Shown: positions 1 to 28,800 of the stretch, in pieces | Position numbering within the stretch: position 1 is the first letter of the stretch | How the letters are laid out: each line of letters begins with the position of its first letter | NCBI RefSeq assembly: GCF_018977255.1 | Contig: NW_024704749.1 | Span: 21,142,001 to 21,184,965 of the forward strand | Origin: Callorhinchus milii | Lineage: Eukaryota | Direction: 5' to 3' | Length of the DNA stretch: 42,965 nt | The notes under the pieces: generated by a model | What the model was told of the DNA's origin: nothing | Databases searched by the model: none | What the model saw: only the letters and a program-made list of their open reading frames with translations | Made by a program: the position numbers and the translations under genes

Positions 1-186
1 TAATAAATTGGTCATTTTCAATCTACGACTGTTTGTGGACACTGCTGTGCGCAATTGGCTGCCGCGTTCGCCCACAAATATACAGTCAATTCACTTTACA
101 GTGTATTCTGTGAAGTGCTTTGGGACGTCCTCCCGACGTGAAAAGCGCTATATCAAATGCAAGGATTATTATTATTATATTATTAT
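1..186 (+). mobile_element. Deu-type SINE, 3' part (young subfamily)
   Basis: Core ctgctgtgcgcaattggctgccgcg, L2-like tail and (TTA)n; near-identical to 11575-11750. Confidence 0.85.
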
Positions 187-503
187 GTTAGAGATCCCGT
201 GGTACCGTTCAAAAGAGAAGGTGAGTTTCTACCGGTGTCCCAGCCAATAATCCCCCAGATAAGAGTGGTCGTTTGGTTCACAGCTGGTTGTGGGGCATTG
301 CTGTGTGCAAATTGGCTGCCGCGTTTGCCTGCAAATATCCTGGGAATCACTTTGAGACATCCTCCTTCCTGATGTGAATAACAACAACCAGTTGCATTTA
401 TATAGCTCCCTTCAGGCAAGGTAACGTCTCAGAGCGCTTAACACTTTATCGAATGCATGAAACCCGTAACAAGTAATCATTTTATCAAATACACAGATTA
501 TTT

Positions 504-509
504 TTTATT
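504..509 (-). terminator. Candidate polyadenylation signal of the unrecognised gene
   Basis: AATAAA on the minus strand in AT-rich sequence after exon F. Confidence 0.45.
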
Positions 510-692
510 AAACTATTGGTACAAAAGTTCTATTAATATGGTCGTAAAGACATGGATAATGCATCTTTAAATGAAACACACTGCACAAGATTGTTCTGTT
601 TCTGTATTGCAAAACATTCTGCTTCCAGTTGAGCCCAAACTTATGACTCAAAAGAGTCCAGAGTTCAAATCCCAATGGGTTCGCTCAGCCCT

Positions 693-944
693 TCAACCTG
701 TAAACGGGTTCTCCCTGAAATTGAAGTGCTTCCTCAGAGACCCGGCAAAGCCAGACAGACCCACACTACTCCGTGTGACAACGACTGTCTGCTTGACTCG
801 AAAGGGAGTCTGGAACAGCCATTCTATAAGATTAGGGCTGGAAAGATATCGAGGTACGATTTTGATTCTCCCACGGTTATTGTTATGGAGTAAATTTTTC
901 GTGAGGAACTTTCTACACTGTGTCTGACTGACATAACTACAGAC
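693..944 (-). CDS. Candidate terminal exon F (VCSYVSQTQCRKFLTK...FRENPFTG*)
   Basis: ttttctaacttacag| acceptor with CTAAC branch-like motif; 83 open codons to TGA; AATAAA about 185 nt downstream. Confidence 0.5.
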   Translation of the reverse strand, partial: VCSYVSQTQCRKFLTKNLLHNNNRGRIKIVPRYLSSPNLIEWLFQTPFRVKQTVVVTRSSVGLSGFAGSLRKHFNFRENPFTG

Positions 945-1227
945 CTGTAAGTTAGAAAATAAATTGCTATAAGTTCAGTTGATTCGTCCACAAAATATAC
1001 AGTTAATTCACTTGACAGTATATTCTGTGAAGCGCTTTGAGACGTCTCGAAGACGTGGTAAGGCGTTGTATCAAATGCCAGGATTATTATTATTATTAGG
1101 TAGCTTGGGACGTTTGTACATGCGACCGACAGGAAGCTGGAAGGCGAACTAGATGGCCCTTAATCTTTTTGAGTCTAGCATTTCTTGCGTTCTTATGTTA
1201 TGTTCTTATTATCGTTTAATTTTGCAC

Positions 1228-1409
1228 CTTTCCACTTTTAAACTGACGTGAAGGTATATTGACTGTGTAAATCTCACTGCATTTGGGCATTTGCTCTGTT
1301 TGATCAGACTGTTGAGTGAAATGAGAGAGCGAGTTTCTGACTAACAGTGATGGAACTTTGCTGGAAATGGGAAAGTGCGGCGTTCCATTGTTGAGCATTT
1401 TTATTCTCT
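1228..1409 (-). CDS. Candidate exon E (RIKMLNNGTPHFPISSK...QFKSGK)
   Basis: cttcctgcag| acceptor, AAG|gtgcaa donor; open frame is ORF 1216..1398; phase-0 end joins exon F. Confidence 0.45.
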
Positions 1410-1533
1410 CTGCAGGAAGAGGAACGCATCAGGAAATGATTCCCTCCCCCCCCCATCCACCCCACCCCACTCTCCCCCCCAGGGAGGAGCAAGAGGCAGG
1501 GGGAGGGTTGGGCCCTTCCTCGGTGTTTGTTAC

Positions 1534-1691
1534 CAGGCGCAGGACATCTCGGATGCTGCGTCGCTGTTTCGTCGGGTCCTCGCCGGAGACCAACCAACCT
1601 CGGACCGGGTGTCATCAGCGTAACCTGGGCTAGTCCAGCGGCTGTATCGCTTGCTGTTCGGCTTGTTCCACACCCGCGGTTTGGTGTTCAT
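1534..1691 (-). CDS. Candidate exon D (frame unresolved; alternative acceptor would start it at 1624)
   Basis: tgttttcag| acceptor and CTG|gtaaca donor around a CpG-rich unique segment; 158 nt is 1 nt out of phase with exon E. Confidence 0.35.
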
Positions 1692-2220
1692 CTGAAAACA
1701 CAAACCCGTCAACTGTATAGAATCATAGAATCTTACAGCACAGAAGGAGGCCATTCGGCCCATCGTGCCTGTGCTGGCTCTTTGAAAAGAGCTATCGAAT
1801 TAGTCCCACTCCCCCGCTCTTACCCAATAAATCATTCATTATTGTATTATTATAATAATATACACTTTACAGTATATTCTGTGAAGCTCTTTGAGACGTC
1901 TGAACAACGTAATAAGGCTCTATATCAAATGCAAGGATGGTTATTATTATTATTGTCGGGGATGCCATCCTTCAGATGGGGGGGTGTTAAACCGAGCTCC
2001 CCGTCTGCCTGTTCAGATGGATTGTAAAGCTCACATGGCACCGTCTGTCTATGACTTGAGGCACCGGGATAATGAATTAAAGACTTGACGTAGCCACAGG
2101 GAAACTTCCACACTCTGTGCTGCTCTGGCACATCACAATGATCAGGATCGTAGAGGGTGGGAGTTATCAAAAGCGGGTTCCGAGAAAAATCCCAGTGAAA
2201 GATCTCCCAGCCACACTCGC

Positions 2221-2370
2221 CTGCATAAAGACAGCTGTGTTCATCTGCAGGGTCTCCATCCGTTCGTTCAGTCTGACCAGCCCCTCACCATGCTCAGCGA
2301 TGGACATCTTCAGCTCCTCATTACTGTCTTGGATGCAATCGAAGCCGGCGTCACTGTTGGGTGAGAGAGC
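2221..2370 (-). CDS. Candidate exon C (ALSPNSDAGFDCIQDSNEELKMSIAEHGEGLVRLNERMETLQMNTAVFMQ)
   Basis: Long pyrimidine tract + tcccag| acceptor, in frame with exon B; putative GC donor CAG|gcgagt gives exactly 150 nt; heptad-like Leu/Met spacing. Confidence 0.6.
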
Positions 2371-2988
2371 CTGGGACAGACAAACACATAGACAGAGCAA
2401 ATATATAAATAGAGTTCAGGCTCAGCTAAAGATCTCACTACAAATACATTGAGTAAATGCAGCATTTTATGAGTGTTCTCAACCCAATTATAAGCCCAGT
2501 GACCAAAGACACAGAGTAGGGTCTAGGGAACTCCAAAATTCTCCCAGCCTCTTCGACTGCACCTTCGGTCACCCTCCTACCCCCATCCTCCCTGCCCTCC
2601 TCCCCTTACCCCTCCTGATCTCAACTCCCAACTGAGGTCCAAATCCCTGACTGTCCAGCGCCTTTAGATGTCCTCCCAACGTGAAAGGCGCTGTACAAAT
2701 GTAATTTTTTGCTGTTGGTTGAGCATTTGTGGGACAGCAGTGCACAATTAGCTGCTGCCTTTTGCCCACAGAATACACAGTCACTCCACTTTACAATATA
2801 TCCGGTGAAGCGCTTTGAGTCTCAACGATACGATAAGGTACCGTATCAAATGTCAGGATTATTATTATTATTATTATTCAACAAGAAACTAAAGCTGAAC
2901 TCTCATACTCACAGTCCCCGACTCTGACACAAAGATCTAAACATCAGTAACTATAAAGGTGACAGTGTGGAATGTTAAACTTACGCAC

Positions 2989-3113
2989 CTCTGAAATGGA
3001 AAGACGCAAGTGATCCAACTTGTGGATTTCAGCTCTTAAACGATCCTCCAGACCTTTCATCAGAGCCAGAGTGCCGTCAGCTTTGGTACTCTCTCTCAGC
3101 AACATGTTCACAC
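2989..3113 (-). CDS. Candidate exon B (GVNMLLRESTKADGTLALMKGLEDRLRAEIHKLDHLRLSISE)
   Basis: ttacag| acceptor, GAG|gtgcgt donor; only one frame is open; helical composition. Confidence 0.6.
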
Positions 3114-3124
3114 CTGTAATAGCA

Positions 3125-3870
3125 GCACAACAACAACAACAAGATTACATTTGTATAGCGCCTTTCACGTTGGGAGGACGTCCCAAGGCGCTGGACAGTG
3201 TACAGCATTTCAGACCCGAGCGCTGGGGTCAGGGGGGGAGAAGGGAGGGGAGGGGAAGGGGGGTGGCCACTGGCATGGTCAAAGAGGAGGGTTTTGAGGC
3301 GGGACTTGAAGGAGGCTAAGGAGGGGGCGAGGCGGAGTGACCGGGGGATGGAATTCCAGAGGTTGGGGGCGGAGTGGCTGAAGGCTCTCCCGCCAATGGT
3401 GGGATGGGTGGGTTGGGGGACATGGAGGAGGCTGGAGCCGGCTGAGCGGAGGGAACGGACGGGTTGGTAGGGGTTTAGGAGGTCGCAGATGTAGGGTGGG
3501 GCGAGGCCATGGAGGGCTTTGTAGGTGAGGACCAGGATCTTGAACTGAAGGATAGGGAGCCAATGGAGTCGAGTGAGAATGGGGGAGATGGGGTCACGGA
3601 GTTTGGTGCAGGAGAGGACACGGGCTGCAGAGTTCTGGATTATCTGCAGCCTGTGGAGGGAGGAGTTGGGAAGGCCGACACGCAGGGGGTTTGCATAGTC
3701 GAGCCCGGAGGTGATGAAGGCATGAACACGAATTTCAGTGGCCTGAGGGGTGAGGTAGTGGCGGAGTCGGGCGATGTTACGGAGATGAGGGAAGGCAGAG
3801 GAGGTCATGGCTTGGATGTGGGGGAGAAGACAGTTGAGGGTCGATCAAGGCACCGAGGTTCCTGACTGGC
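3125..3870 (-). mobile_element. L2-clade LINE 3' fragment
   Basis: ORF 3077..3808 has L2 ORF2 C-terminal motifs ([51 protein letters not shown]); stem-loop tail and (GTT)n. Confidence 0.92.
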
Positions 3871-3984
3871 TTGGTGAGTTGTAGTCAGCAACCACGGAGG
3901 TTGGTGCTGCCAGAGCCTGATTCAAGTCAGAACAAAAAAGCTTATTATCCACGGAAAGTGATCTCCCTTTGGCCATTTATTCAA

Positions 3985-4255
3985 CGGCAAGCTACTGCGG
4001 GTTTAGCTGGTTAGACTCCCAGCAGTTATCCCAACGCACACTCTGGGCTCCGCCCAAGCCTTGGCTCTTGCCAACCTGTGCCTCATACTTTTTGGAATTA
4101 GCTAAGCAGGAGGCGTCCCTCCAGGAAGAGAGAGAGAGAGCGCATTGAAGGTGGGAGGCACGCAATTCCCAGTTGGGTTTGGATGCACTTAAGCAACGGT
4201 GATGGGCGATGGCTGCGTGTGTCAGACACCCGTCCGACCCAAAGGTTTCTGACAT
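3985..4255. repeat. Unclassified dispersed repeat with an internal (GA)n tract
   Basis: Shares cagcagtt..cccaacgcacactct...caagccttggctcttgccaacctg and later blocks with about 9795-10070; partial copies near 24665-24830 and 28075-28167. Confidence 0.75.
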
Positions 4256-4653
4256 CCAGCCCACTTTCCAACAACTTTAATGGAACTGCCTACAAAAACA
4301 AGTCACTGTAACAAGTTACAATACATCCCGGGAACTGCTCCCACCGTGAAAAGCTCTACATTACGTTAACTTCAAGCCCCCCCCCCCCACCAAACCCCCC
4401 CCCCCCCCACACACCTTTGAGCAATGAATCAGATGGGTTTAATATAAACCAGGCTGATGATCTACTTAATATAAATACCATTCAGACAGGAGAGCGAGGA
4501 AAATGGGGAGCAAACTCTTTATAAACACCGAGTACAATTCCTGGATCCACGAGAAGATTTCACTTAAAGCTTTTTGCTCTCTCTCTCTCTCTCTCTTGGA
4601 TCGTAGGCAAATCAGCGACATGTTTTTTTCTTGCTACAAACAGACTCGCTCAC

Positions 4654-4879
4654 CTTCAGGGGATGTGTTTCGACAGCTGGTTTGGTTGCGTGGAAGTGCG
4701 GACAGACAAAGACAAAAGTTTCCCTGTTTTTTCGTCGAAAAAAATTGTTTCCTCTCATTTGTTTGTGGCGGTGCCCAGTAGTGGTAGGAATGTGAAGTAT
4801 GTTCACTCAAACGAAACAACCCTGATTTCAGTCTGTTCGGAGTTTTACAGGCTTTGACATGAAGCTCAATTCTCAACAT
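4654..4879 (-). CDS. Candidate exon A of an unrecognised gene (MLRIELHVKACK...RNTSPE)
   Basis: ATG at 4879, open frame (ORF 4634..4897), strong donor GAAG|gtgagc in phase 1 matching exon B. Confidence 0.45.
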
Positions 4880-7377
4880 GACCTTCTTCCCGATCAAAGC
4901 GATCGGGCAAAAAAAAAACAGACACCAAATAGCACTTTATGAACATTTAAACAACTTCTCAGTTCCCATCAAGTTTAATGTCAAGTTCTGGAAACATTTG
5001 CAAGAGAGAGCTTTGCCTTCGTCTCCCCTCCATTCGCTGCATTTGGTTACACAGTATGTACAGTGTATACAAAATATTTTTTTTGATTAAAAGGTATTTA
5101 TTTTTTAAACCATCTCTGTGAGTGTTTTGGGGATGCTGTCTGTGCGCAATTGGCTGCCGCGTTTCGTCCACAAAACCACTATATTCTGTGAAGCGCTTTG
5201 AAAGACCTCTCAATGATGTGATAAGGCACTATATGAAATGCAAGGATTATTAATATTATATTTCTGTATACCCAAAATGCTCTCAAGGTTTTTCTTCAAA
5301 GCCTCCAGCAGTCACTGCAGGTTATTCCTCATTCCAAAAGAGTTATAGGTGTAAAATATGTAGTTTTGTAATCCTCAGAACCGCAAAAATATTTTTGGGT
5401 CAATTAAAAAAAATTCTCCGCGCAAACTGTTGATGTGGGTGGTTACTGTGGACAGACTCCCACAGACAGATCAGTACTGTCAGGAGCCAAGTGTGACCCC
5501 CCAGAACATCTATCAGCTGGGTACAGAAACAACAACTTGCATTTATAAAGCGTCCCTCACGCAGGGCAGCTTCTCAGAGCTCTAGGCAGTGGCAGAGAAA
5601 CACCAGTGTTGGGGACAGTTAGAAGTGGTGTTGGCGGTATTGAACAGTTTGTATTTGCTGCAATCCTGGACTGTTTATTGCCTTTGGTTTGCATATGTTG
5701 GACTCCAGTGAAGGGCATATAATAATCTAATAATCCTTGCATTGGATATAGCGCCACATCAGGTTGTTGAGACGTGTCAAAGCTCTTCACAGGATAGACA
5801 GTACTGTAAAGTGTACTGTGTACTTTATGGGTGAAACGCGGCAGTGTCCCACAAACAGCCATGGAGTGAGTGACCAATTTTTTTTTAAAAAAAAGGTTTT
5901 TATTTGGGGGGATTGTGGGCAGGACACTGGGGGGGGGGGAGGGGGGGGGAGAAAGAGAGAAGAGAGACAGAAACTCCCTTCGCTTTTTACGAATAGTGCC
6001 ACGGGATCTTTAGCGTCCACCTGAACAGGCAGACAGGACATTGGTTTAATGTCTCATCCAAAGGTTTGAGGTCTGTTCTGGCGGACGCTTTGTCAAGACT
6101 CGTTGCATGGTCAGGAAAAAGTAGCTTGGAGACACTTGACAGCGGGAGGGAGGAGTGAGTTAACCCAATCTTGTATTCCGTCCCCACAAAACAGCACACG
6201 AGCACAAAACAGGAGACAGTAACATTTCCAACATCCCTTTAACAAATGTAGAACTACAAACAAAGGTTTTCAAAAATCATACATCAAATACGAGCACGGA
6301 ATAGTTTTCAAGAGTCTGAGTTTGTTATGTGTGTGTATGTGTCTGTGTGTGTTGTGTACTTGTGTTTTTATTCACGTGCCTGTGTATCTGGCGTGTGTGT
6401 GTGTGTGTGTGTGTGTGTTTGGGTCATTTCATATGGGGAGGGCTGAACTCTTATGCCCTATGTGTATCTACAGTAAAATCATTATTTCCCCCCTTCATTC
6501 AAGTCTCACATGCACCTTCGAAACCAAGATAAAATACAATCAATCAACTCAAACAAAAAAATTTAACACGGAAAAGTGCTCACGACTGACATGATACAAT
6601 AGCCACACTGCCGACCGAGGCCTCCAGTTAGTTGTGTTGTGTTGCGGAGGCCGTCTTTGCCGGCAGCAGTGATTAAACAACGTTTCTCGTTAGGAGACGC
6701 ACAGGCAGCCTCTCAACCCCTCTCTGCAGGTTCGTCAGCTCTGACATGGGGAGGATCTGTTGGAAACTCTGCTGAACACCAGGGCTGTCTGTCTAACTGC
6801 TGGGTGTGCAGGCAACTACATTTGTGCAGTGTGATCTGGCTCCGTACCAGGGGAACGCACATCCCCTCAGGCCCACACGCACACATACACGCCCCTCATC
6901 CATCCAACACTATCCACTGGCTCCTTCCAGCACTGAATTAGTGGCACCGACACGTTGGGAGCGCAGCTGAGGCGCTTGCCAAGCTTCACGGTGCTTGCGA
7001 AGCTGACCCTCGAGTTCGCACAAGACCCTGTGACAAGGAGACGGGCATTTCTGTCTCTCTCCAGCAGCCGGCAGCTTGCAGACATGACAGGTGTAGTGAG
7101 ACACGCGGCAGACACCTGTGCTCCAGAGCAATGCCTGAGGAGGGAGCAGACATATTCAGACGGTCTCTCTTTCTCTTTCCCCCTCTCACCCCCTCACCTC
7201 ACCCCCTTCCCAGCGCCAGATCGGTGAGTGAAACCACAGTCGGATGGGATCAGTTGCTCAGTTTAAGACATTCCTCTGTGGAGTTTTTTTGTTTGGAAGT
7301 TTATAACCGTTTGTATTGAGTAACTGGTACATCCCAGTTAAGAGACAAACCATGGAAGCACGTTTTATACAAGAGAC

Positions 7378-7418
<41 letters not shown>

Positions 7419-7843
7419 CGGGGAGAAACCCACAGAGAAACAGAAAGTAAGAGAAAGTGAGTGAGAGAGAAAGAAAGCTAGAGAAGGACATGTTTGTGGG
7501 TGTGCGCGTGTGAAAGAGAGAGAGAGTCAGTAAGCAGGGTAAAGTAAGAGAGAGAGAGAGAAACACACATACACACAAGGAGGAGGGTAGAGAGAGTGAA
7601 AGAGACACCAAGGAGAGAGAGAGAGAGAGAACATTAAACCTCCCAGTCATAAAAAAAATTATACGAATTAACATTTTCTTGTGCAACATCGAATGTTTCC
7701 CCTGCGTGCCATCAAATAACAGTGTCACACACAGAGGCTCCTTCCTATGACGCATTGCTGTGAGGCAGTACGGAAAGGATCCTTGGTATTTACACAGATG
7801 CCACGGGAGATGGGAAGCAGAGGTCAGCAAACAGTCTCAGCCT

Positions 7844-7898
7844 TTATCTGGACGTGTCCATTCGATCTTTGTAATCCTCACAGAAACTGAACACTTTC
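7844..7898 (-). CDS. ZER1: ZER1 last coding exon ([17 protein letters not shown])
   Basis: tatcag| acceptor; TAA at 7846-7844; conserved MDTSR C-terminus. Confidence 0.92.
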
Positions 7899-10800
7899 CT
7901 GATAAATGAATGCAACAAAACAAAATGAAAGATTAACACTCTTCTGGAGCCGGAGGGGAATCAAAGCTCGTTCACTTATTGTTAGCCAGAGCACCCCTGT
8001 TCTTGGTGAGGCCAGCACAGTGACACAGTCGCCTTCTGCGAGTGCTCAGGAGCACAGAATCTGGTTAATTTTGTGGAGTCCCGTAGAGTGGTGGTGAGAG
8101 CGCTCGCCTCGCAAGCCAGAAGCCCCGGGTTCAATTCCCGGGCAAGGCAAAACCTTAGGTAAGTTTGCTTCCTCCACACGCTTCTGTTTATCTAGCAGTA
8201 ATTAGGAACCCGGTTGTTAGTCGATCGGTGGATCGCTTGCCAGGGGTAATAATGCCTTCCAAAAAAATATTGGTCATTCAATCCAAGACTGCTTGTGGGA
8301 AATTGCTGTGCGCAATTAGCTGCCGCGTTTCGCCCACGAAACACACAATCAAGTCACTTTACAATATATCCTGTAAAGGGCTTTGAGACCTCTAAACGAC
8401 TTAAGGCGTTGTATCAAATGCAAGAGTTATTATTAATATTACTATTTTGTTGACTGATTGAAGCCACGAAAGATGTCAGTAATTTAGGGCAGTAGCGAGG
8501 CTTTGGACCAACAACAAATTACATTCAGGGATCAACACCCGAGCTGGTGGTTGGGATCAAGAGGGGTGGAGGGCGGGGAGATTAGGGGTAGGAGGGTGAC
8601 CAAAGGTACCAGGGAGCTGCCTGCTCTGTCTGACTCAGCTACTGGCTGTACAAACCAGCTGAACCCTAGAACATCTAGCGGACTTTTAACAGTGTTAGCT
8701 TAACAGAAGCAGCTGTATCATGATAACCATTTTCACGGGAGAGGGGGCTAACTAATGCTTTGTGCGTAAACACAACGTGAAATCCAAAGCCCTGGAGCAG
8801 GGAGCAGCACAGGAAGAGGAAGGCGATCACGTACCTGGCCATGGCTTTGGTCTCTGACCTGGCCTCCTCGCTGTCGATCACCCCTTTCAGCAGCTCAATC
8901 CCGTTTTCTTTTATAAGCAACGGACAGTATTTATCAGCTGCAGAAGCAAAACAGATGTCAGCTCTCACACAGGGTAAAGCGAGACAAACTTAGCAAACAC
9001 CCACCCACTGGGGAACCTGTACCTCGGGGGTTGAGGTCAACAAAAATAATAATAATAATAATAAATTGGTCGCTTCAATCCACGACTGTTTGTGGGACGC
9101 TACTGTGCGCAACTGGCTGCCGAGTTTCACCCACAAAATATACAGTCAATTCAATTTAATAATAATCCTTGGATTTGATATAGCGCTTTTCATGTCTTCT
9201 CGACGTCTCAAAGTGCTTCACAGAATAAGCTGTAAAGTGAATTAACCGTATATTTGTGGACGAAACGCAGCAGCCAATTGCGCACAGCAGCGTCCCACAA
9301 ACAGTTATGGATTGAAAATGACCAATTTATTATTGCTTTGTTTTGGAGGGATTATTATTAGGTGTGTGGAGTAAGGAAACTTGCCTAAGGTTTCGCCCTG
9401 ACCTGCCTGAAATTGAACCCAGGTGTCTCGCTTGCAAGGCGAGTGCTCTAACCACTGAGCTACAGTGTATTCCGTGAAGCGCTTTGAGACGTCTCGACAA
9501 CGTGATAAAGTGCTGTATCAAATGCAAGGATTATTGTTTTGTTATCAATTTAGGACAGCGCTGACAAAAGGGCAAAGAGCACTCGTTGGGTGCAAACAGT
9601 CCTCCTTTATGGATCCGAGCTGAAGCAGTGAGGTGGATTAATGTAGCAAACACGGGAAGTGGCTCCAGGGAGGGAGGGCTCCGGCCTACACTGACCCGTC
9701 GCTGAGCACCCTTCACAGCGGGCATGTCTATTTGCCAAGGACCCTCTCACATGAGGACCTGGATTAAGCAGCTGGTGCTGAGTAAGGCTGGTATGTAGCT
9801 TTGGACATGGAACTCCAGCAGTTTACCCAACGCACACTCTAGCTCCCACAAGCCTTGGCTCTTGCCAACCTGCACCTAATGCTTTCTGGAATCAGGTAAG
9901 CAGGATGCATCCCTTCAGAGAGGGAGAGAGAGAGAGAGTGTGCATTCCATTTCAATAATCATCTCTGGGATTTCCATGTGTTGGTGGGATGTCTGGAATT
10001 CTCAATTGGGTTTGGAGACTCTTAAGCATGGTGATGGGTTTCCGCATATGTTAAGACATCTGGTTGACCAAAAAAAAAAACACTGACTGGCCCTTAAAGA
10101 AAAGTTCCACCTAATAGTCTGACATTTACAATAAGTCAATACTTACGATAGACAGAGGTGAGATTGAAGAGAGCCCAGGTTGCCCAGTGCTGGCTAACGG
10201 GAGCAATTCGCTGAGGGAGAAGGCGTAGGATTGGCTCAAAAGACCTGCAAATAATAATAATAAATAATTATAATAAATAATAATAATTTGACACAGCGAG
10301 AGTGCATCTAAAATAACATTCCCCATCTGTACAGGGTGTCCACAAAGTCCTGTAACCCCTTCATGTTTTTTTTTCCCCCTTACAGCGCACCGACCAACAA
10401 CTGAAACATGTGGAAGATGATGATAAATTGTGTTTAGAAGTTATTTCACTGTATTCAGTACAAGTGCTTAACTGTATTAGACTGTCCAGAGGATCAGTGT
10501 GTGTGAGTGTGAGAGTGTGTGTGTGAGCGCCATCATTTTCATGGCAGTTAATGATCCTTCGCCATGTTCGTTGTCCACATCTTCGGTAACATGGATGGAT
10601 GGAGTGAGTGAGTGAGTGCGGAGGCGAAATGCATCTCCGACAGATTGTTTCTGCTCCTCCGTTGTCTTGTTTTGTAACAGAGGGGTAACAGGACTTGGTG
10701 GACACCCCATAGAACCTCCCAGCTTTGAGTAGAACCATAATAATTATTATAATAGTCCTTGTGTTTTACACCGTTGCCTCTCGAAGCGTTTCGGTTGGGC

Positions 10801-24697: not shown

Positions 24698-25081
24698 CGC
24701 GTCCCATTCTAACAATCTATCTCGGGAATTCCCACGTGTACGAGGGACGTGCGGAATTCTCAGCTTGGTTTGGAGGCTCTTAACCACGTCACCGGGTTTC
24801 CCACATGTGTCAAGACACCCGGCTGACCCCCTCCCACCAAAAAAAACACCGCCCACCCCACGGAGACACTCACTGTCTGGAGACACAGGGAGAGGAGGAA
24901 AAGGCTGTCAGGACAGGAGATGGCCTGTGACTGGAGTCGACATGGACTGTGTGTGTGTGTGTGTGTGTGTTGAGAGCGTCTCTGCTCCGGATCCCGATAT
25001 AAACCCTATAAATAAACAGACACCAGTGACTGAGGGAAGGGCCCGTGTCCCCCCCACCACCAAACACCAGACCCGGCCCCC

Positions 25082-25360
25082 TTTCTCTCTTTCTTTCCTT
25101 CCTTTCTTTCGTTCTCCCTCCCTCCCTCTTCTTCTCTCCCCCCACACCCCTTCTCCCCCACCTCTCCCCCCCCCTCTCTCTCTCTCTCTCTCCCCTCTCT
25201 CTCTCCCCCCCCCCTCTTCTCTCTCCCCCCTCCCTCTCCCCCTCTCTTCTCTCCCCCCCTCTCTCCCCTCCTCTCTCCCCCTCTCTCTCCCCCACCTCTC
25301 TCTTCTCCCCCTCTCCCCTCTCCTCTCTCCCCCTCTCCCCCCCCTCTCTCTCTCCCCTCA
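25082..25360. repeat. Polypyrimidine (CT-rich) low-complexity tract at the start of ZER1 intron 1
   Basis: Almost pure C/T on the plus strand. Confidence 0.92.
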
Positions 25361-25361
25361 C

Positions 25362-25826
25362 CTGCCGCCGCCGCCGCTGTTGCTCTCGGGTTGTCAACAA
25401 ACCACTTCGCCTCCGGGTCACTCACCGCCGACCGGGGTCCGCCACACCGGAAGTCCGGAGGGAAACCAATCCCAACCCCTCATTGACTGAGATACAACCT
25501 GAGCGGCTCCTTAGTTTATATTACCCCCGACCCCCCCCCCCCCAGCCTCACCCCCCCGACCCCCCCCCCAGCCTCACCCCCCCGACCCCCCCCAGCCTCA
25601 CCCCCGACCCCCCACCAGCCTCACCCCCCGACCCCCCCCCCCCAGCCTCACCCCCCCCAGGCTCCCCCCCAGCCTCACCCCCCACCCCCAGCCTCACCCC
25701 CCCCCCCCCCCAGTGAGTTTGGGCAGTTTATTCCCGGGAGGAGAGTGTTTTGTGATGGGAGGAACTTGATTCCAGACGGACCAGATATCAGCTTCCGGTA
25801 CCGCGCCGAAGAATAAGGAAGTGAAG
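25362..25826. promoter_or_regulatory. Bidirectional CpG-rich promoter of ZER1 and TBC1D13, including ZER1 non-coding exon 1
   Basis: CCGGAAGT (ETS/GABPA) 25447-25454, CCAAT 25466-25470, GCTTCCGGT 25791-25799, GGAAGTG near 25817; minus-strand donors GCAG|gtgagg (exon end 25362) and GGCG|gtgagt (25426). Confidence 0.8.
25525..25712. repeat. C-rich tandem repeat (CCCCCCGACCCCCCCCAGCCTCA)n inside the bidirectional promoter
   Basis: Repeated cagcctca units separated by C runs. Confidence 0.9.
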
Positions 25827-25849
25827 ATGTCGCGGCTCCACCGGACCCG
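25827..25849 (+). CDS. TBC1D13: TBC1D13 exon 1 coding part (MSRLHRTR)
   Basis: gaagATGTCG...ACC CG|gtaact; resembles recalled human MSSLHKSR. Confidence 0.88.
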
Positions 25850-28800
25850 GTAACTGAGCTCCGGGGGAGAGACCCGGGGGGGGGGGGAGAGACCCGGGGG
25901 GAGAGACCTGGGGGGAGGAGGGGAGAGAGAGACCTGGGGAGGAGGGGGGAGAGAGACCTGGGGAGGAGGGGAGAGAGACCTGGGAGGAGGAGGGAGAGAG
26001 AGACCTGGGGAGGAGGGGGTAGAGAGACCTGGGGAGGAGGGGGGAGAGAGACTGGGGAGGAGGAGGGGAGAGAGAGACCTGGGGAGAGGGGGTAGAGAGA
26101 CCTGGGGAGGAGGGGGGAGAGAGACCTGGGGAGGAGGAGGGGAGAGAGAGACCTGGGGAGGAGGGGGTAGAGAGACCTGGGGAGGAGGAGGGAGAGAGAC
26201 CTGAGGAGGAGGAGGGAGAGAGACCTGGGGAGGAGGAGGGAGAGAGAGACCTGGGAGGAGGGGGAGAGGACCTGGGGAGGAGGAGGGGAGAGACCTGGGA
26301 GGAGGAGGGGAGAGAGAGCCTGGGAGGAGGGGGTAGAGAGACCTGAGGAGGAGGAGGGGGAGAGAGACCTGAGGAGGAGGAGGGGAGAGAGACCTGGGGA
26401 GGAGGGGGGAGAGAGACCCGGGGAGGAGGAGGAGGGAGAGACCTGAGGAGGAGTGGGGAGAGACCTGAGGAGGAGGGGGGAGAGACCCGGGGAGGAGGAG
26501 GAGGGAGAGAGACCTGGGGAGGGGGGGGTGAGAGAGACCCGGGGAGGAAGGGTGGGAGAGAGACCCGGGGATGGGGGGGTGGGAGAGACACCCGGGGAGG
26601 GAGTGGGGGGTGGGAGAGACACCCGGGGAGGGAGTGGGGGAGAGGGAAAGATCCGGGGAGGTGGGGGGAGAGGGCCCCAGAGAGAGAGAGAGAGAGAGTC
26701 TCAGGCCCCAGAGGGAGCGAGAGAGACATTGTCCCAAGAGAGAAAGAGACTGCCCCAGGGAAGGAGAGAGAGAGAGAGAGAGATCCAGACCTGAGAGACT
26801 GAGGAAGAAGCCTGAGCCCAGGAAGTCGGATCCTCAGAGTAGATTAATCCCGAATGTTGTGTTTACCGGTTGCATTTTGTTTCAGAGTTGCCGAGTTCCG
26901 AGATGCTTTGGATGAACCAAACATCAGCCTCGTCAGACTGCGAGAGCTGTGCTTCAGTGGTAAGTTGTGCAGCTTCGTGCCTCAGCATTGGCTTCCGTTT
27001 CCCTAACAATAATTTTGCTTTTGGGAGAACCCGGTGTTGTAGATGACCCGTGAGGTGGTCATCATGTTGTAATCGCCTTACAAAGCACAGTTACTACACC
27101 TTGCAGCGAATCCTACGAAGCACTTTGAGATGTCTTCCTGCGTGAAAGATATTATATCAAATGTAAGGATTATTATATCTGGATCAAGCTTTTCTTTTTG
27201 TAAAATGCTCCTCAGTCAATCAAGAAGATGAAAAGTTCTATCTTGGTCTCAGCTGCGCTTAAATTCATTCATAAACTGGTGTTATTCGTTAAGAATCGCG
27301 CACAATTAATAATAAAAATAGTCCTTGCATTTGATATAAAGTCTTATCGCATTGTTGTGATAGCTGAAAGTGCTTCACAGAATGTACTGTGAAGTGTAGT
27401 GACTGCATATTTGTACGGGCGAACAGACTGTGAACAGACTTTGCTCCCACTTTAGTAAATCGTAATCCGTGGAATAAACTTCACCCGAATCTGTTGCCAT
27501 GTGATGTCTGTAACATCATAACATTTGTACCCTCCTGTTTCTGCCACAGGGATCCCTTTTGAAGGGGGACTACGTTCCATTTGTTGGAAGGTGAGAAACT
27601 TGCTTCATTTCCTGGTGGGTGGGGCGGTGGGGGGAAGGGTTCTAGTGACAGACCACATTGACCTCACACCCTCCATACCCAGCCCAACTCCCTCCAATCT
27701 CGGGGCCTTTGTTAAAGTGCTTTTAAGGCACGTTCCTAACGTGAAAGCCACCGTCACCTTGGCAGCGGAGTCTCCTTGGAGCTGAACTGGCTCCGGATGA
27801 CATGTCTGGCAACGGAATGTCAAAATCGAGCCAGCCCTCTGTGTCGTTCTTGGTAGTGCAGTTCTTAAGCCAGGCAGGTCTACAGTATTCCAGGGCACTG
27901 CTGATGACAGCACAGCCAGCCTGGCTCATCGGCATGACCTGGAAGGGCAGACCAGTCACTGGGGGCAGGGAGTCATCCGACTCAGCACCTGTTAACCCTG
28001 CAAGCCAAAGCCCTGATGGCCAAGGTGGTCCAAGCTGGACAGGCAGCAGAAAAGCTTGCCAGGCAGAGCTACCTATGGCAAGTTATGTGGTTTTAGCTGG
28101 TTAAACTCCAGCGGTTACCTCAGTGTACACTCTAGGAACCCCCAAGCCTTGGCTCTTGACAACCTTGGGTGGTGGGGGGGGATTTGCCTCAAAAGCATTC
28201 TCATCCAGTTTGTTGCTACAGAACCTCAAGCTGCTGGGTTTGACAGCAATAAACCGTCACCCTCCCAATTGCTTTATTTCCCTGCAGCAATTTACAAAGT
28301 GACGTAAAAATTCCATAATTTCTTATCTCTTCACAGATCCTGCTGAATTACCTGCCCACGGAGCGGGATCAGTGGAGCTGCTTCCTGAAGAAACAGAGGT
28401 GACATGTTTCTTTCAATTGTATGTTAACAAGATGTTGGGAGGTGTCAGCCGACCTGTGCCTGACTGAGGTGTTGTGTTTACACATATAGTGCCTGGGGAG
28501 GGCTTAAGTTTACCCATAGTGTCAGGGGTGTTGAAATACAGGAGGGTTTTAAGGCAATGAAACAGCGCCTTGGGACGTCCTCCCGATGTGAAAGGCGCTT
28601 TACATATGTAACTTATTGTTGTTCTAAACACATTCACTGTGAGGTTTTGAATTTCAGGGAGGTTTACACACAGTTCCTGAAAGAGCTGATAATACAGCCG
28701 GGAATCGCTAAAGCCAATCTGGGTTTCTCCCGTGAGGACGTTACACTGGAAGATCATGTGAGTGTCCAGTTACTGCGTGGAAAGGAATTTCTCATTTTCC

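Follow-up and report, generated by a model that had tools for sequence, protein, structure and literature searches.

Described systems with which the protein considered here can be compared include two soluble R-SNARE-motif proteins, L027 and L028, which we take to be amisyn (STXBP6) and tomosyn (STXBP5), and the phosphorylated tails of kinase substrates. R-R-x-S is a basophilic kinase consensus of the PKA type and acidic sites are of the CK1 type, while lipidation under the CaaX rule uses a cysteine that is fourth from the C-terminus. GSK3 depends on primed substrates, phosphorylating P0 once P+4 has been primed, and the FBXW7 phosphodegron in its refined form has proline at P+2, the loose pattern having scored 5/22 (PMC8955265). 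Here we describe a coiled-coil protein with a near-invariant tail, encoded in a window of 42,965 nucleotides from Callorhinchus milii (RefSeq assembly GCF_018977255.1, contig NW_024704749.1, positions 21,142,001 to 21,184,965 of the forward strand; position 1 below is the first letter of the window). The gene itself is ordinary; its family is undescribed and strongly constrained.

The spliced frame is identical in sequence to database records of RefSeq LOC103184639 ('uncharacterized', Callorhinchus milii; XP_007900964.1 and.2). Thus, the locus is already modelled rather than unrecognised, as an earlier note on this DNA had called it, and what is new here is the family more than the gene. There is almost no doubt about the gene structure and the family: the locus is a spliced single-copy gene with four exons on the minus strand (Table 1). 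The contig sample covers eight of the 14 listed sequencing runs, seven RNA-like and one DNA-like (X11); none is recorded as RNA, and the seven are treated as RNA because canonical splice joints are present in them and missing from X11. RNA contigs lay out the exons as 4654 to at least 4769, 3113-2989, 2370-2221 and 1691 to about 492. The earlier note had singled out junctions 4654/3113 and 2989/2370, and spliced contigs carry both, in at least two and at least six of the seven RNA-like runs, respectively. In addition, a GC..AG junction that it did not name, 2221/1691, is found in at least 5/7. All three boundaries are crossed unspliced in X11. The sequence also confirms the splice signals claimed for segments A, B and C (GT at donor positions 4653 and 2988, AG at acceptor positions 3114 and 2371) and their phases, A(1)-B(0)-C(0). 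That this is a real spliced gene is therefore borne out by RNA contigs with a DNA-like control, splicing being found in three studies with the DNA control alongside. A genome search with the protein returned one locus, with three exon matches and one stop-containing match at E 0.12.

Table 1. Features of the LOC103184639 locus in window coordinates
Feature	Positions	Strand	Basis or remark
Exon 1 (earlier A), probably 5' UTR	4654..4918	minus	RNA contigs; 5' end unsure
Upstream in-frame ATG, source of the older 220-aa model	4877..4879	minus	Not conserved; joined translation is database protein P0002
Out-of-frame upstream ORF, 36 codons, ATG 4758	3108..4758	minus	Sequence only
Intron 1, GT-AG	3114..4653	minus	Sequence and RNA contigs
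Exon 2 (B)	2989..3113	minus	Residues 1-39, helix 1; RNA contigs
Intron 2, GT-AG, phase 0	2371..2988	minus	RNA joints
Exon 3 (C)	2221..2370	minus	Residues 40-89, variable loop and helix 2; RNA contigs
Intron 3, GC-AG, phase 0	1692..2220	minus	RNA joints; donor read in sequence
Exon 4 (D), coding part	1530..1691	minus	Residues 90-142, basic linker and conserved tail
Near-invariant tail: S124-P, T128, R129-R130-N131-S132, S136, S139, C140, W142	1533..1589	minus	Alignment of relatives
3' UTR, about 1.04 kb	492..1529	minus	Unspliced contigs; holds earlier E (1411-1228), F (944-693) and repeat fragments
AATAAA, likely poly(A) signal	504..509	minus	X3 contig stops at 492 (contig ends are a weak hint)

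The protein has 142 aa and reads from ATG 3105 (start codon 3105-3103, in exon 2), which has A at -3 and at which relatives begin with a matching Met. The ATG at 4879 proposed earlier is present in the sequence but is not conserved, and the frame of exon 1 matched the N-terminal extensions of none of the three relatives tested. Contigs start within exon 1 at 4769 in X5 and X6 and at 4918 in X3, and after splicing the upstream ORF from ATG 4758 ends in a TGA 2 nt before the main ATG. Intron 1 contains, near 3130-3850, a decayed retroposon fragment of very high repeat depth, presumably an L2-type LINE, on which Pfam gave no match. The RefSeq model was 220 aa long in version.1 and is 142 aa long in version.2.

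The earlier note had proposed a lineage-restricted gene of six exons and 340-360 aa that continues through segments E and F. The TGA at 695-693 and the AATAAA at 509-504 on which it drew are both present, E and F are open frames, and there is a GT at 1227 and an AG at 945. However, a conserved in-frame TAA (1532-1530, in exon 4) follows directly after W142. Moreover, contigs of X1, X3, X7 and X4 cross position 1533 unspliced, those of X2 (1070-1424) and X7 (1070-1454) cross 1228, and those of X1, X2, X3 and X7 cross 944; four exons are found, E and F being unspliced 3' UTR. Junction 1228/944 is not among the joints listed, and a rare splice there inside the 3' UTR may occur. None of 21 candidates proved to be a relative of exon F read as a protein, and a HMMER scan of 1.84 billion proteins gave two tandem-repeat chance matches only. 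All six variants seen in exon F would alter an amino acid, which fits neutral DNA because 77% of sites are non-synonymous. The six-exon model is refuted for the main transcript and keeps next to no probability; it and the 220-aa model are wrong.

Equally, the locus does not sit in the slot of ZDHHC12. The protein is not ZDHHC12, as had been stated, since it has neither a DHHC motif nor a PF01529 match. An intact DHHC gene lies on the same strand, roughly 1.4-5.6 kb outside the start of the window, its PF01529 match marking a separate gene (G000:C8:21137441-21137632); it is ZDHHC12, intact and just downstream, so nothing was replaced. EDF1 is also a separate gene in Callorhinchus milii, about 64 kb from LOC103184639. 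In ray-finned fishes the coiled-coil gene seems to adjoin edf1, not ZDHHC12, and some family members carry its name: the Dunckerocampus EDF1/MBF1 'isoforms' X1, X3 and X4 and Doryrhamphus isoform X2 belong to the coiled-coil family (E 9e-29). Unlike true EDF1, these pipefish records have no MBF1 or HTH domain; MBF1 (PF08523) and HTH_3 (PF01381) are absent from P0001, P0041 and P0043 and occur only in the fused sturgeon model P0023. They probably owe the label to a locus that the two genes share or in which they overlap.

Contrary to the earlier note, the gene is not restricted to one lineage and does not evolve fast. It has relatives at 44-76% identity in cartilaginous fishes (sharks and a skate), in lobe-finned fishes (coelacanth) and in ray-finned fishes (bichir, sturgeons and teleosts), 20 of the 36 candidates tested being relatives at E <= 4e-12, and the family tree separates ray-finned fishes from the rest with support 99/98. 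Unnamed orthologues are LOC144685547 in basking shark, LOC106702816 / H3B5F4 in coelacanth, LOC121307038 in paddlefish and LOC120535117 in bichir. LOC103184639 and its orthologues exist as automatic models only, without a name, a Pfam family or a paper that we could find; literature searches with locus ids, family peptides and neighbour genes returned nothing relevant (supplements, such as fish phosphoproteome tables, fell outside them). On sequence comparison, the protein is conserved across non-tetrapod jawed vertebrates, and the gene seems to be missing from land vertebrates, one word-based search of proteins of 78-249 aa having returned no tetrapod relative. It is improbable that the family persists in tetrapods as a diverged, named coiled-coil gene such as CCDC184 (DUF4677), which may bear a likeness where helix 1 begins and where helix 2 ends. 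PF15726 matches 0/21 members at E <= 10 and does not match P0001, in searches whose HMMER filters drop weak matches. A PF15726 search of the Callorhinchus milii genome gave no candidate, a blank that is uninformative.

AlphaFold2, run with 32 sequences, places helices at residues 3-40 and 52-90 (core pLDDT 81-94, tail <60; pTM 0.48). The predicted structure is a soluble two-helix coiled-coil hairpin over residues 3-90, the alternative being a single long helix within a complex, and the C-terminal tail is predicted to be disordered; a basic-aromatic linker of net +6 lies between the two. These results agree with the earlier view of B+C as a helical, coiled-coil-like peptide (the quoted peptide is confirmed and helices are predicted). 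They also agree that there is no transmembrane helix (maximum Kyte-Doolittle 19-mer 0.22-0.26, and 0.10-0.58 over 6/6 proteins) and that no characterised family fits, Pfam searches giving sub-threshold coiled-coil noise only, whether run with single exons, with P0001, with 19 aligned members or with 21 members one by one. No relative of the family was found in the PDB by sequence and profile searches, where the best match, a flagellin at E 0.0013, stood among generic coils and was rejected. Foldseek returned generic hairpins (best E 0.36), and the best ESM Atlas values, 0.83 and 0.80, are at chance level. Generic helical hairpins (ESCRT-III cores, SMC arms, designed heterodimers) share the predicted antiparallel two-helix fold in VIA (Z 8.5-10.2), but the rows are tied, with 4-18% identity and Z values below a bar of about 13 for helical bundles, and ESCRT-III (Z 8.6-9.2) is tied with unrelated rows. 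A search for HR1 found no PKN-type gene on this contig, which does not prove that none is there.

Helix 2 might be taken for a degenerate R-SNARE motif with His66 at the zero layer, which would make the protein a soluble fusion decoy. Compared with nine R-SNARE exon fragments of the same genome, the register that sets H66 on the zero-layer Arg comes first among 29 shifts with a score of 12.3, the next one scoring 0.3; of 5000 shuffles that preserve the heptads, 21 score as high. Layers +1 to +8 then carry L70, L73, M/V77, L80, T84 and F87 (Phe at layer +6), and the coinciding residues are Leu at +4, +7 and +14 and Phe at +21. However, the register was picked by eye and is hence post hoc, it yields 0.3 per position versus 1.1-2.3 for true R-SNARE members, layers N-terminal of -1 mismatch, and the zero layer is His, not Arg, in 16/16 rows. 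Furthermore, PF00957 does not match exon 3 and matches one of 21 members (E 0.54, 10.5 bits versus a curated cut-off of 26.4), and no SNARE appears among 28 PDB profile matches. An R-SNARE-like register is thus weakly hinted at by the residues of helix 2, and a fusion decoy is very unlikely.

Mean pairwise identity over 16 rows is 0.69 and 0.70 in the helices, 0.28 in the loop, 0.46 in the linker and 0.98 in the last 15 residues. The tail chain S-P-x-x-T-x-x-x-S-x-x-x-S is kept by 40/41 family proteins (isoforms and near copies counted), and C140 and W142 by 39/41; within the tail block, residues 121, 126 and 127 vary and residues 120, 122-125 and 128-142 are constant. We tentatively favour a soluble adaptor whose near-invariant tail may be a phosphorylation-controlled docking or degradation motif. 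The hairpin would bind one partner or itself, and a priming kinase would mark either S132, in a basophilic R-R-x-S site of PKA type, or S136, in an acidic site of CK1 type. GSK3 would then walk the i-4 chain (S132, T128, S124), and the tail, once phosphorylated and with Cys-x-Trp free at its end, would bind or release a slowly evolving partner. The feature of a GSK3 relay, a Ser/Thr chain at i+4 spacing in a predicted disordered region, is present, at a chance of 1-5%: a four-member chain arises in 1.1-2.4% of tail shuffles, or 4.8% when any step of 2-5 is allowed, a statistic that is modest and post hoc. The loose FBXW7 phosphodegron (S/T-P at P0 and P+1; S/T/D/E at P+4) fits S124-P125-x-x-T128 in 40/41, and the refined consensus fails, P+2 being Ala, Val, Thr, Ile or Met.

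A phospho-relay alone leaves the invariant Ala, Met, Cys and Trp unexplained. Cys140 might be S-acylated or otherwise lipidated, the tail and the basic-aromatic linker then tying the hairpin to a membrane; the conservation of C140 and W142, the lack of a transmembrane helix and the neighbouring DHHC acyltransferase gene speak for such a signal. We consider it unlikely, given that Cys140 occupies the third place from the end where CaaX calls for the fourth, that lying next to ZDHHC12 says nothing about function, and that ray-finned copies seem to adjoin edf1 instead. It is also quite unlikely that the tail is frozen by nucleotide constraint, as a regulatory element or a Trp-stop splice donor for read-through into edf1, and not as a protein motif. 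CpG o/e is indeed 1.08 in the coding part of exon 4 versus 0.57 for 1-6000, and the final Trp codon together with the stop makes up a GT donor, at which the sturgeon model P0023 joins the tail to EDF1. However, in Callorhinchus milii RNA contigs of four runs cross this donor unspliced and EDF1 lies about 64 kb away, and the variation at three positions inside the constant block resembles that of a binding motif.

The contrast between a 15-residue disordered segment that is 98% identical from chimaera to pipefish and a folded part at about 70% points to one conserved binding partner, for which the tail is a ready bait. If the tetrapod loss is true, the gene belongs with those that disappeared when vertebrates came onto land, and it is open to testing in zebrafish. 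Moreover, annotation is corrected for the 220-aa and six-exon models and for the EDF1-isoform names of pipefish. The most far-reaching account joins these threads: a gene of jawed vertebrates that has escaped description, that fishes have retained for about 450 million years and tetrapods have lost, and that the EDF1 label hides in model fishes, would encode a soluble membrane-fusion regulator. In it, an R-SNARE-like helix with His at the zero layer would be part of a hairpin and be switched by an invariant phospho-relay tail. As a whole, this account is a long shot.

In comparison with amisyn/STXBP6 and tomosyn/STXBP5, the coiled-coil protein is similar in having no transmembrane anchor and in its heptad register, which agrees in the C-terminal half, including Phe at layer +6, and differs in its His zero layer, its unmatched N-terminal half and a score that is a fifth of that of true members; it has in addition a first helix and a 50-residue tail. 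The tail resembles GSK3 relay substrates and FBXW7 phosphodegrons (c-Myc, cyclin E) in its Ser-Pro at P0, Thr at P+4, Ser at +8 and +12 and predicted disorder, and it departs from them in that P+2 is not Pro, that P+3 is Arg in most members and that invariance extends up to the C-terminus (PMC8955265).

The gene downstream of ZER1 is real, already modelled by RefSeq and unstudied, and it belongs to an undescribed fish-wide family. A search with exon C matched one protein among six candidates, the uncharacterized 142-aa LOC103184639 of Callorhinchus milii, whose gene has a single copy in that genome. The earlier note had proposed six minus-strand exons, A to F; the splice signals and phases claimed for A to C, and the coiled-coil-like helix quoted from B and C, are present in the sequence, where C is followed by a GC donor and an acceptor that opens in frame at 1691. 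RNA was assessed in eight of 14 listed runs, of which seven, from three studies, are presumed RNA and one looks like DNA. Spliced contigs carry junction 2989/2370 in at least six of the seven RNA-like runs, 2221/1691 in at least five and 4654/3113 in at least two, and a single 966-nt contig (run X3) chains all four exons; in the DNA-like run X11, every exon boundary is crossed without splicing. Contrary to this simple exon picture, a contig of run X1 extends exon 2 into intron 1, by either an alternative start near a retroposon end or intron retention, and run X2 crosses the 4654 donor unspliced. In X1, exon 1 lacks coverage below 4812.

Features in and near the window, G000:C8:21142001-21184965
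Feature	Position	Strand	Remark
Segment A as proposed (exon 1)	4879-4654	-	
Exon 2 (B)	3113-2989	-	
Exon 3 (C)	2370-2221	-	
Stop codon TAA	1532-1530	-	last exon
Segment E	1411-1228	-	3' UTR
Segment F	944-693	-	3' UTR
AATAAA	509-504	-	contigs extend to 492
Upstream ORF	4758 to 3108	-	36 codons, out of frame; ends 2 nt before main ATG after splicing
X1 extension of exon 2	2989-3162		
Presumed ZER1 3' UTR	5031-7900	-	contigs extend to about 5031
AATAAA in presumed ZER1 3' UTR	5102-5097		
Contigs bridging the ZER1/exon 1 gap	4812-5169; 4610-5031		X1; X2
Purine/pyrimidine-skewed tandem repeats	24900-26850		long; near presumed ZER1 5' region; several low-complexity ORFs of 150-380 codons
Compound minisatellite, intron 1 of ZDHHC12	L002:7120-8290		~1.1 kb; short constant unit alternating with GT runs

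The last exon is undivided, and its frame closes at the TAA. Since RNA contigs cross 1533, 1228 and 944 without a joint, to just beyond the AATAAA, and the frame has already stopped, E and F are 3' UTR rather than coding exons, and the proposed junction 1228/944 is absent among the joints listed. All six variants in F would be non-synonymous, none of 21 candidates is a relative of F, and a full protein-database scan with F matched only two tandem-repeat proteins. Thus, the gene had been correctly detected but overbuilt; with E and F unspliced after the stop, six exons are rejected as the main transcript, and the six-exon model has next to no probability, though a rare splice inside the 3' UTR may occur. 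At the other end, translation of the 142-aa form begins at ATG 3105, which matches the first Met of its relatives, and an older 220-aa version in the same cluster is the A-B-C-D translation from ATG 4879. The exon A frame does not match the N-terminal extensions of three relatives, and two contigs start at 4769, below ATG 4879; 5' UTR is the likeliest reading of exon A, and a longer isoform is possible. The upstream ORF could damp translation or allow reinitiation.

ZER1 lies upstream (Pfam matches), with the end of the last coding exon near 7845. Contigs assigned to its presumed 3' UTR end only 100-300 nt above exon 1, and others bridge the gap, so that ZER1 read-through is possible. Within this UTR an X11 contig joins 6321 to 6429, where RNA contigs end at both points, probably reflecting a 107-bp deletion allele or assembly insertion. 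The gene had been placed in the slot of ZDHHC12; downstream on the same strand, ~1.4 kb past the window, an intact DHHC gene begins at a GC-rich start of its own, which places the present gene between ZER1 and ZDHHC12, where it replaces nothing. Past the window (G000:C8:21079000-21141000) follow ZDHHC12, an opposite-strand cyclophilin, two or three genes of the CD39/ENTPD family, one of the UDPGP family and EDF1, ~64 kb away. PKN3 adjoins ZDHHC12 in human, but a search for HR1-domain (PKN-type) genes gave no match on this contig.

With the 142-aa protein as query, 20 of 36 candidates passed (all E <= 4e-12), 19 of them covering 90-100% of its length at 44-100% identity. The 17 with organism names come from chimaera, shark, coelacanth, paddlefish, sturgeon, bichir and teleosts, and cluster members add three sharks, one skate and further teleosts; the gene is thus not the lineage-restricted one that had been supposed, its age having been misjudged, but spans cartilaginous, lobe-finned and ray-finned fishes. 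A 23-row tree separates ray-finned fishes from the rest (support 99/98), cartilaginous fishes forming one side at only 71/34. Paddlefish and coelacanth isoforms differ at the exon 2/3 junction, which points to shared introns. None of the 17 is a tetrapod; because the search used exact five-residue words and proteins of 78-249 aa, tetrapod loss is only inferred. A hidden relative among tetrapods is very unlikely; CCDC184, one candidate, gained no support. Pipefish members (P0019, P0041-P0043) carry the label of EDF1 isoforms without having EDF1 domains; in one model from a sturgeon (P0023) the last exon is fused to EDF1. We infer that in ray-finned fishes the gene adjoins edf1 and is masked by it in annotation; fish edf1 labels may mix two genes. 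Full-text searches on ids, LOC103184639 and family peptides found no paper (subscription papers and supplements lie outside their scope), and the excerpts among the matches listed for the neighbours, tetrapod gene loss and CCDC184 do not mention the gene. What gives the family weight is its nearly unchanging tail, its apparent loss in tetrapods and the mislabelling of members as EDF1.

From 32 sequences, AlphaFold2 predicts two helices, residues 3-40 and 52-90, and a tail of low confidence (pLDDT averaging 68 over the model, pTM 0.48), and a single-sequence run is similar; the predicted form is a hairpin with a disordered tail. The protein has no transmembrane stretch, no Pfam family scores above its cut-off, and PDB, Foldseek, VIA and ESM Atlas return generic coiled coils only. 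The protein is very unlikely to be an R-SNARE-like decoy: the His66 register of helix 2 is the best of 29 shifts, matched or beaten by only 21 of 5000 heptad shuffles, but it scores 0.3 per position against 1.1-2.3 in true members (two near-duplicate rows of 11 removed), and PF00957 does not recognise it. Over 16 rows, pairwise identity averages 0.69 and 0.70 for the helices, 0.28 for the loop, 0.46 for the basic linker (net charge +6) and 0.98 for the final 15 residues. Of the 41 family proteins collected, a count that takes in isoforms and near copies, 31 share an identical stretch here, eight depart from it at one residue and two are aberrant models.

Nucleotide-level constraint could have frozen the tail, given the high CpG content of exon 4 and the overlap of its stop with a splice donor used in the sturgeon model, but C. 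milii RNA reads through that donor, and we consider this quite unlikely. Lipidation of Cys140 is unlikely too. Our tentative preference, somewhat short of even odds, is for a putative adaptor whose tail would be switched by phosphorylation. In 40 of 41 family proteins, S124, T128, S132 and S136 follow one another at exactly i+4, a chain found in 1.1-2.4% of shuffled tails (4.8% with any step of 2-5). S132 lies within R-R-x-S and S136 three residues after Asp, which are the patterns of PKA and CK1. As Ala, Met, Cys and the terminal Trp are invariant, the free C-terminal end might sit in a pocket. The chain itself would form a GSK3-type primed relay, GSK3 acting on primed substrates at P0 after P+4 priming (PMC8955265). 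S124-P-x-x-T128 fits the loose FBXW7 pattern and not the refined one, and since the loose pattern worked in 5 of 22 cases in that paper (PMC8955265), docking is as likely as degradation.
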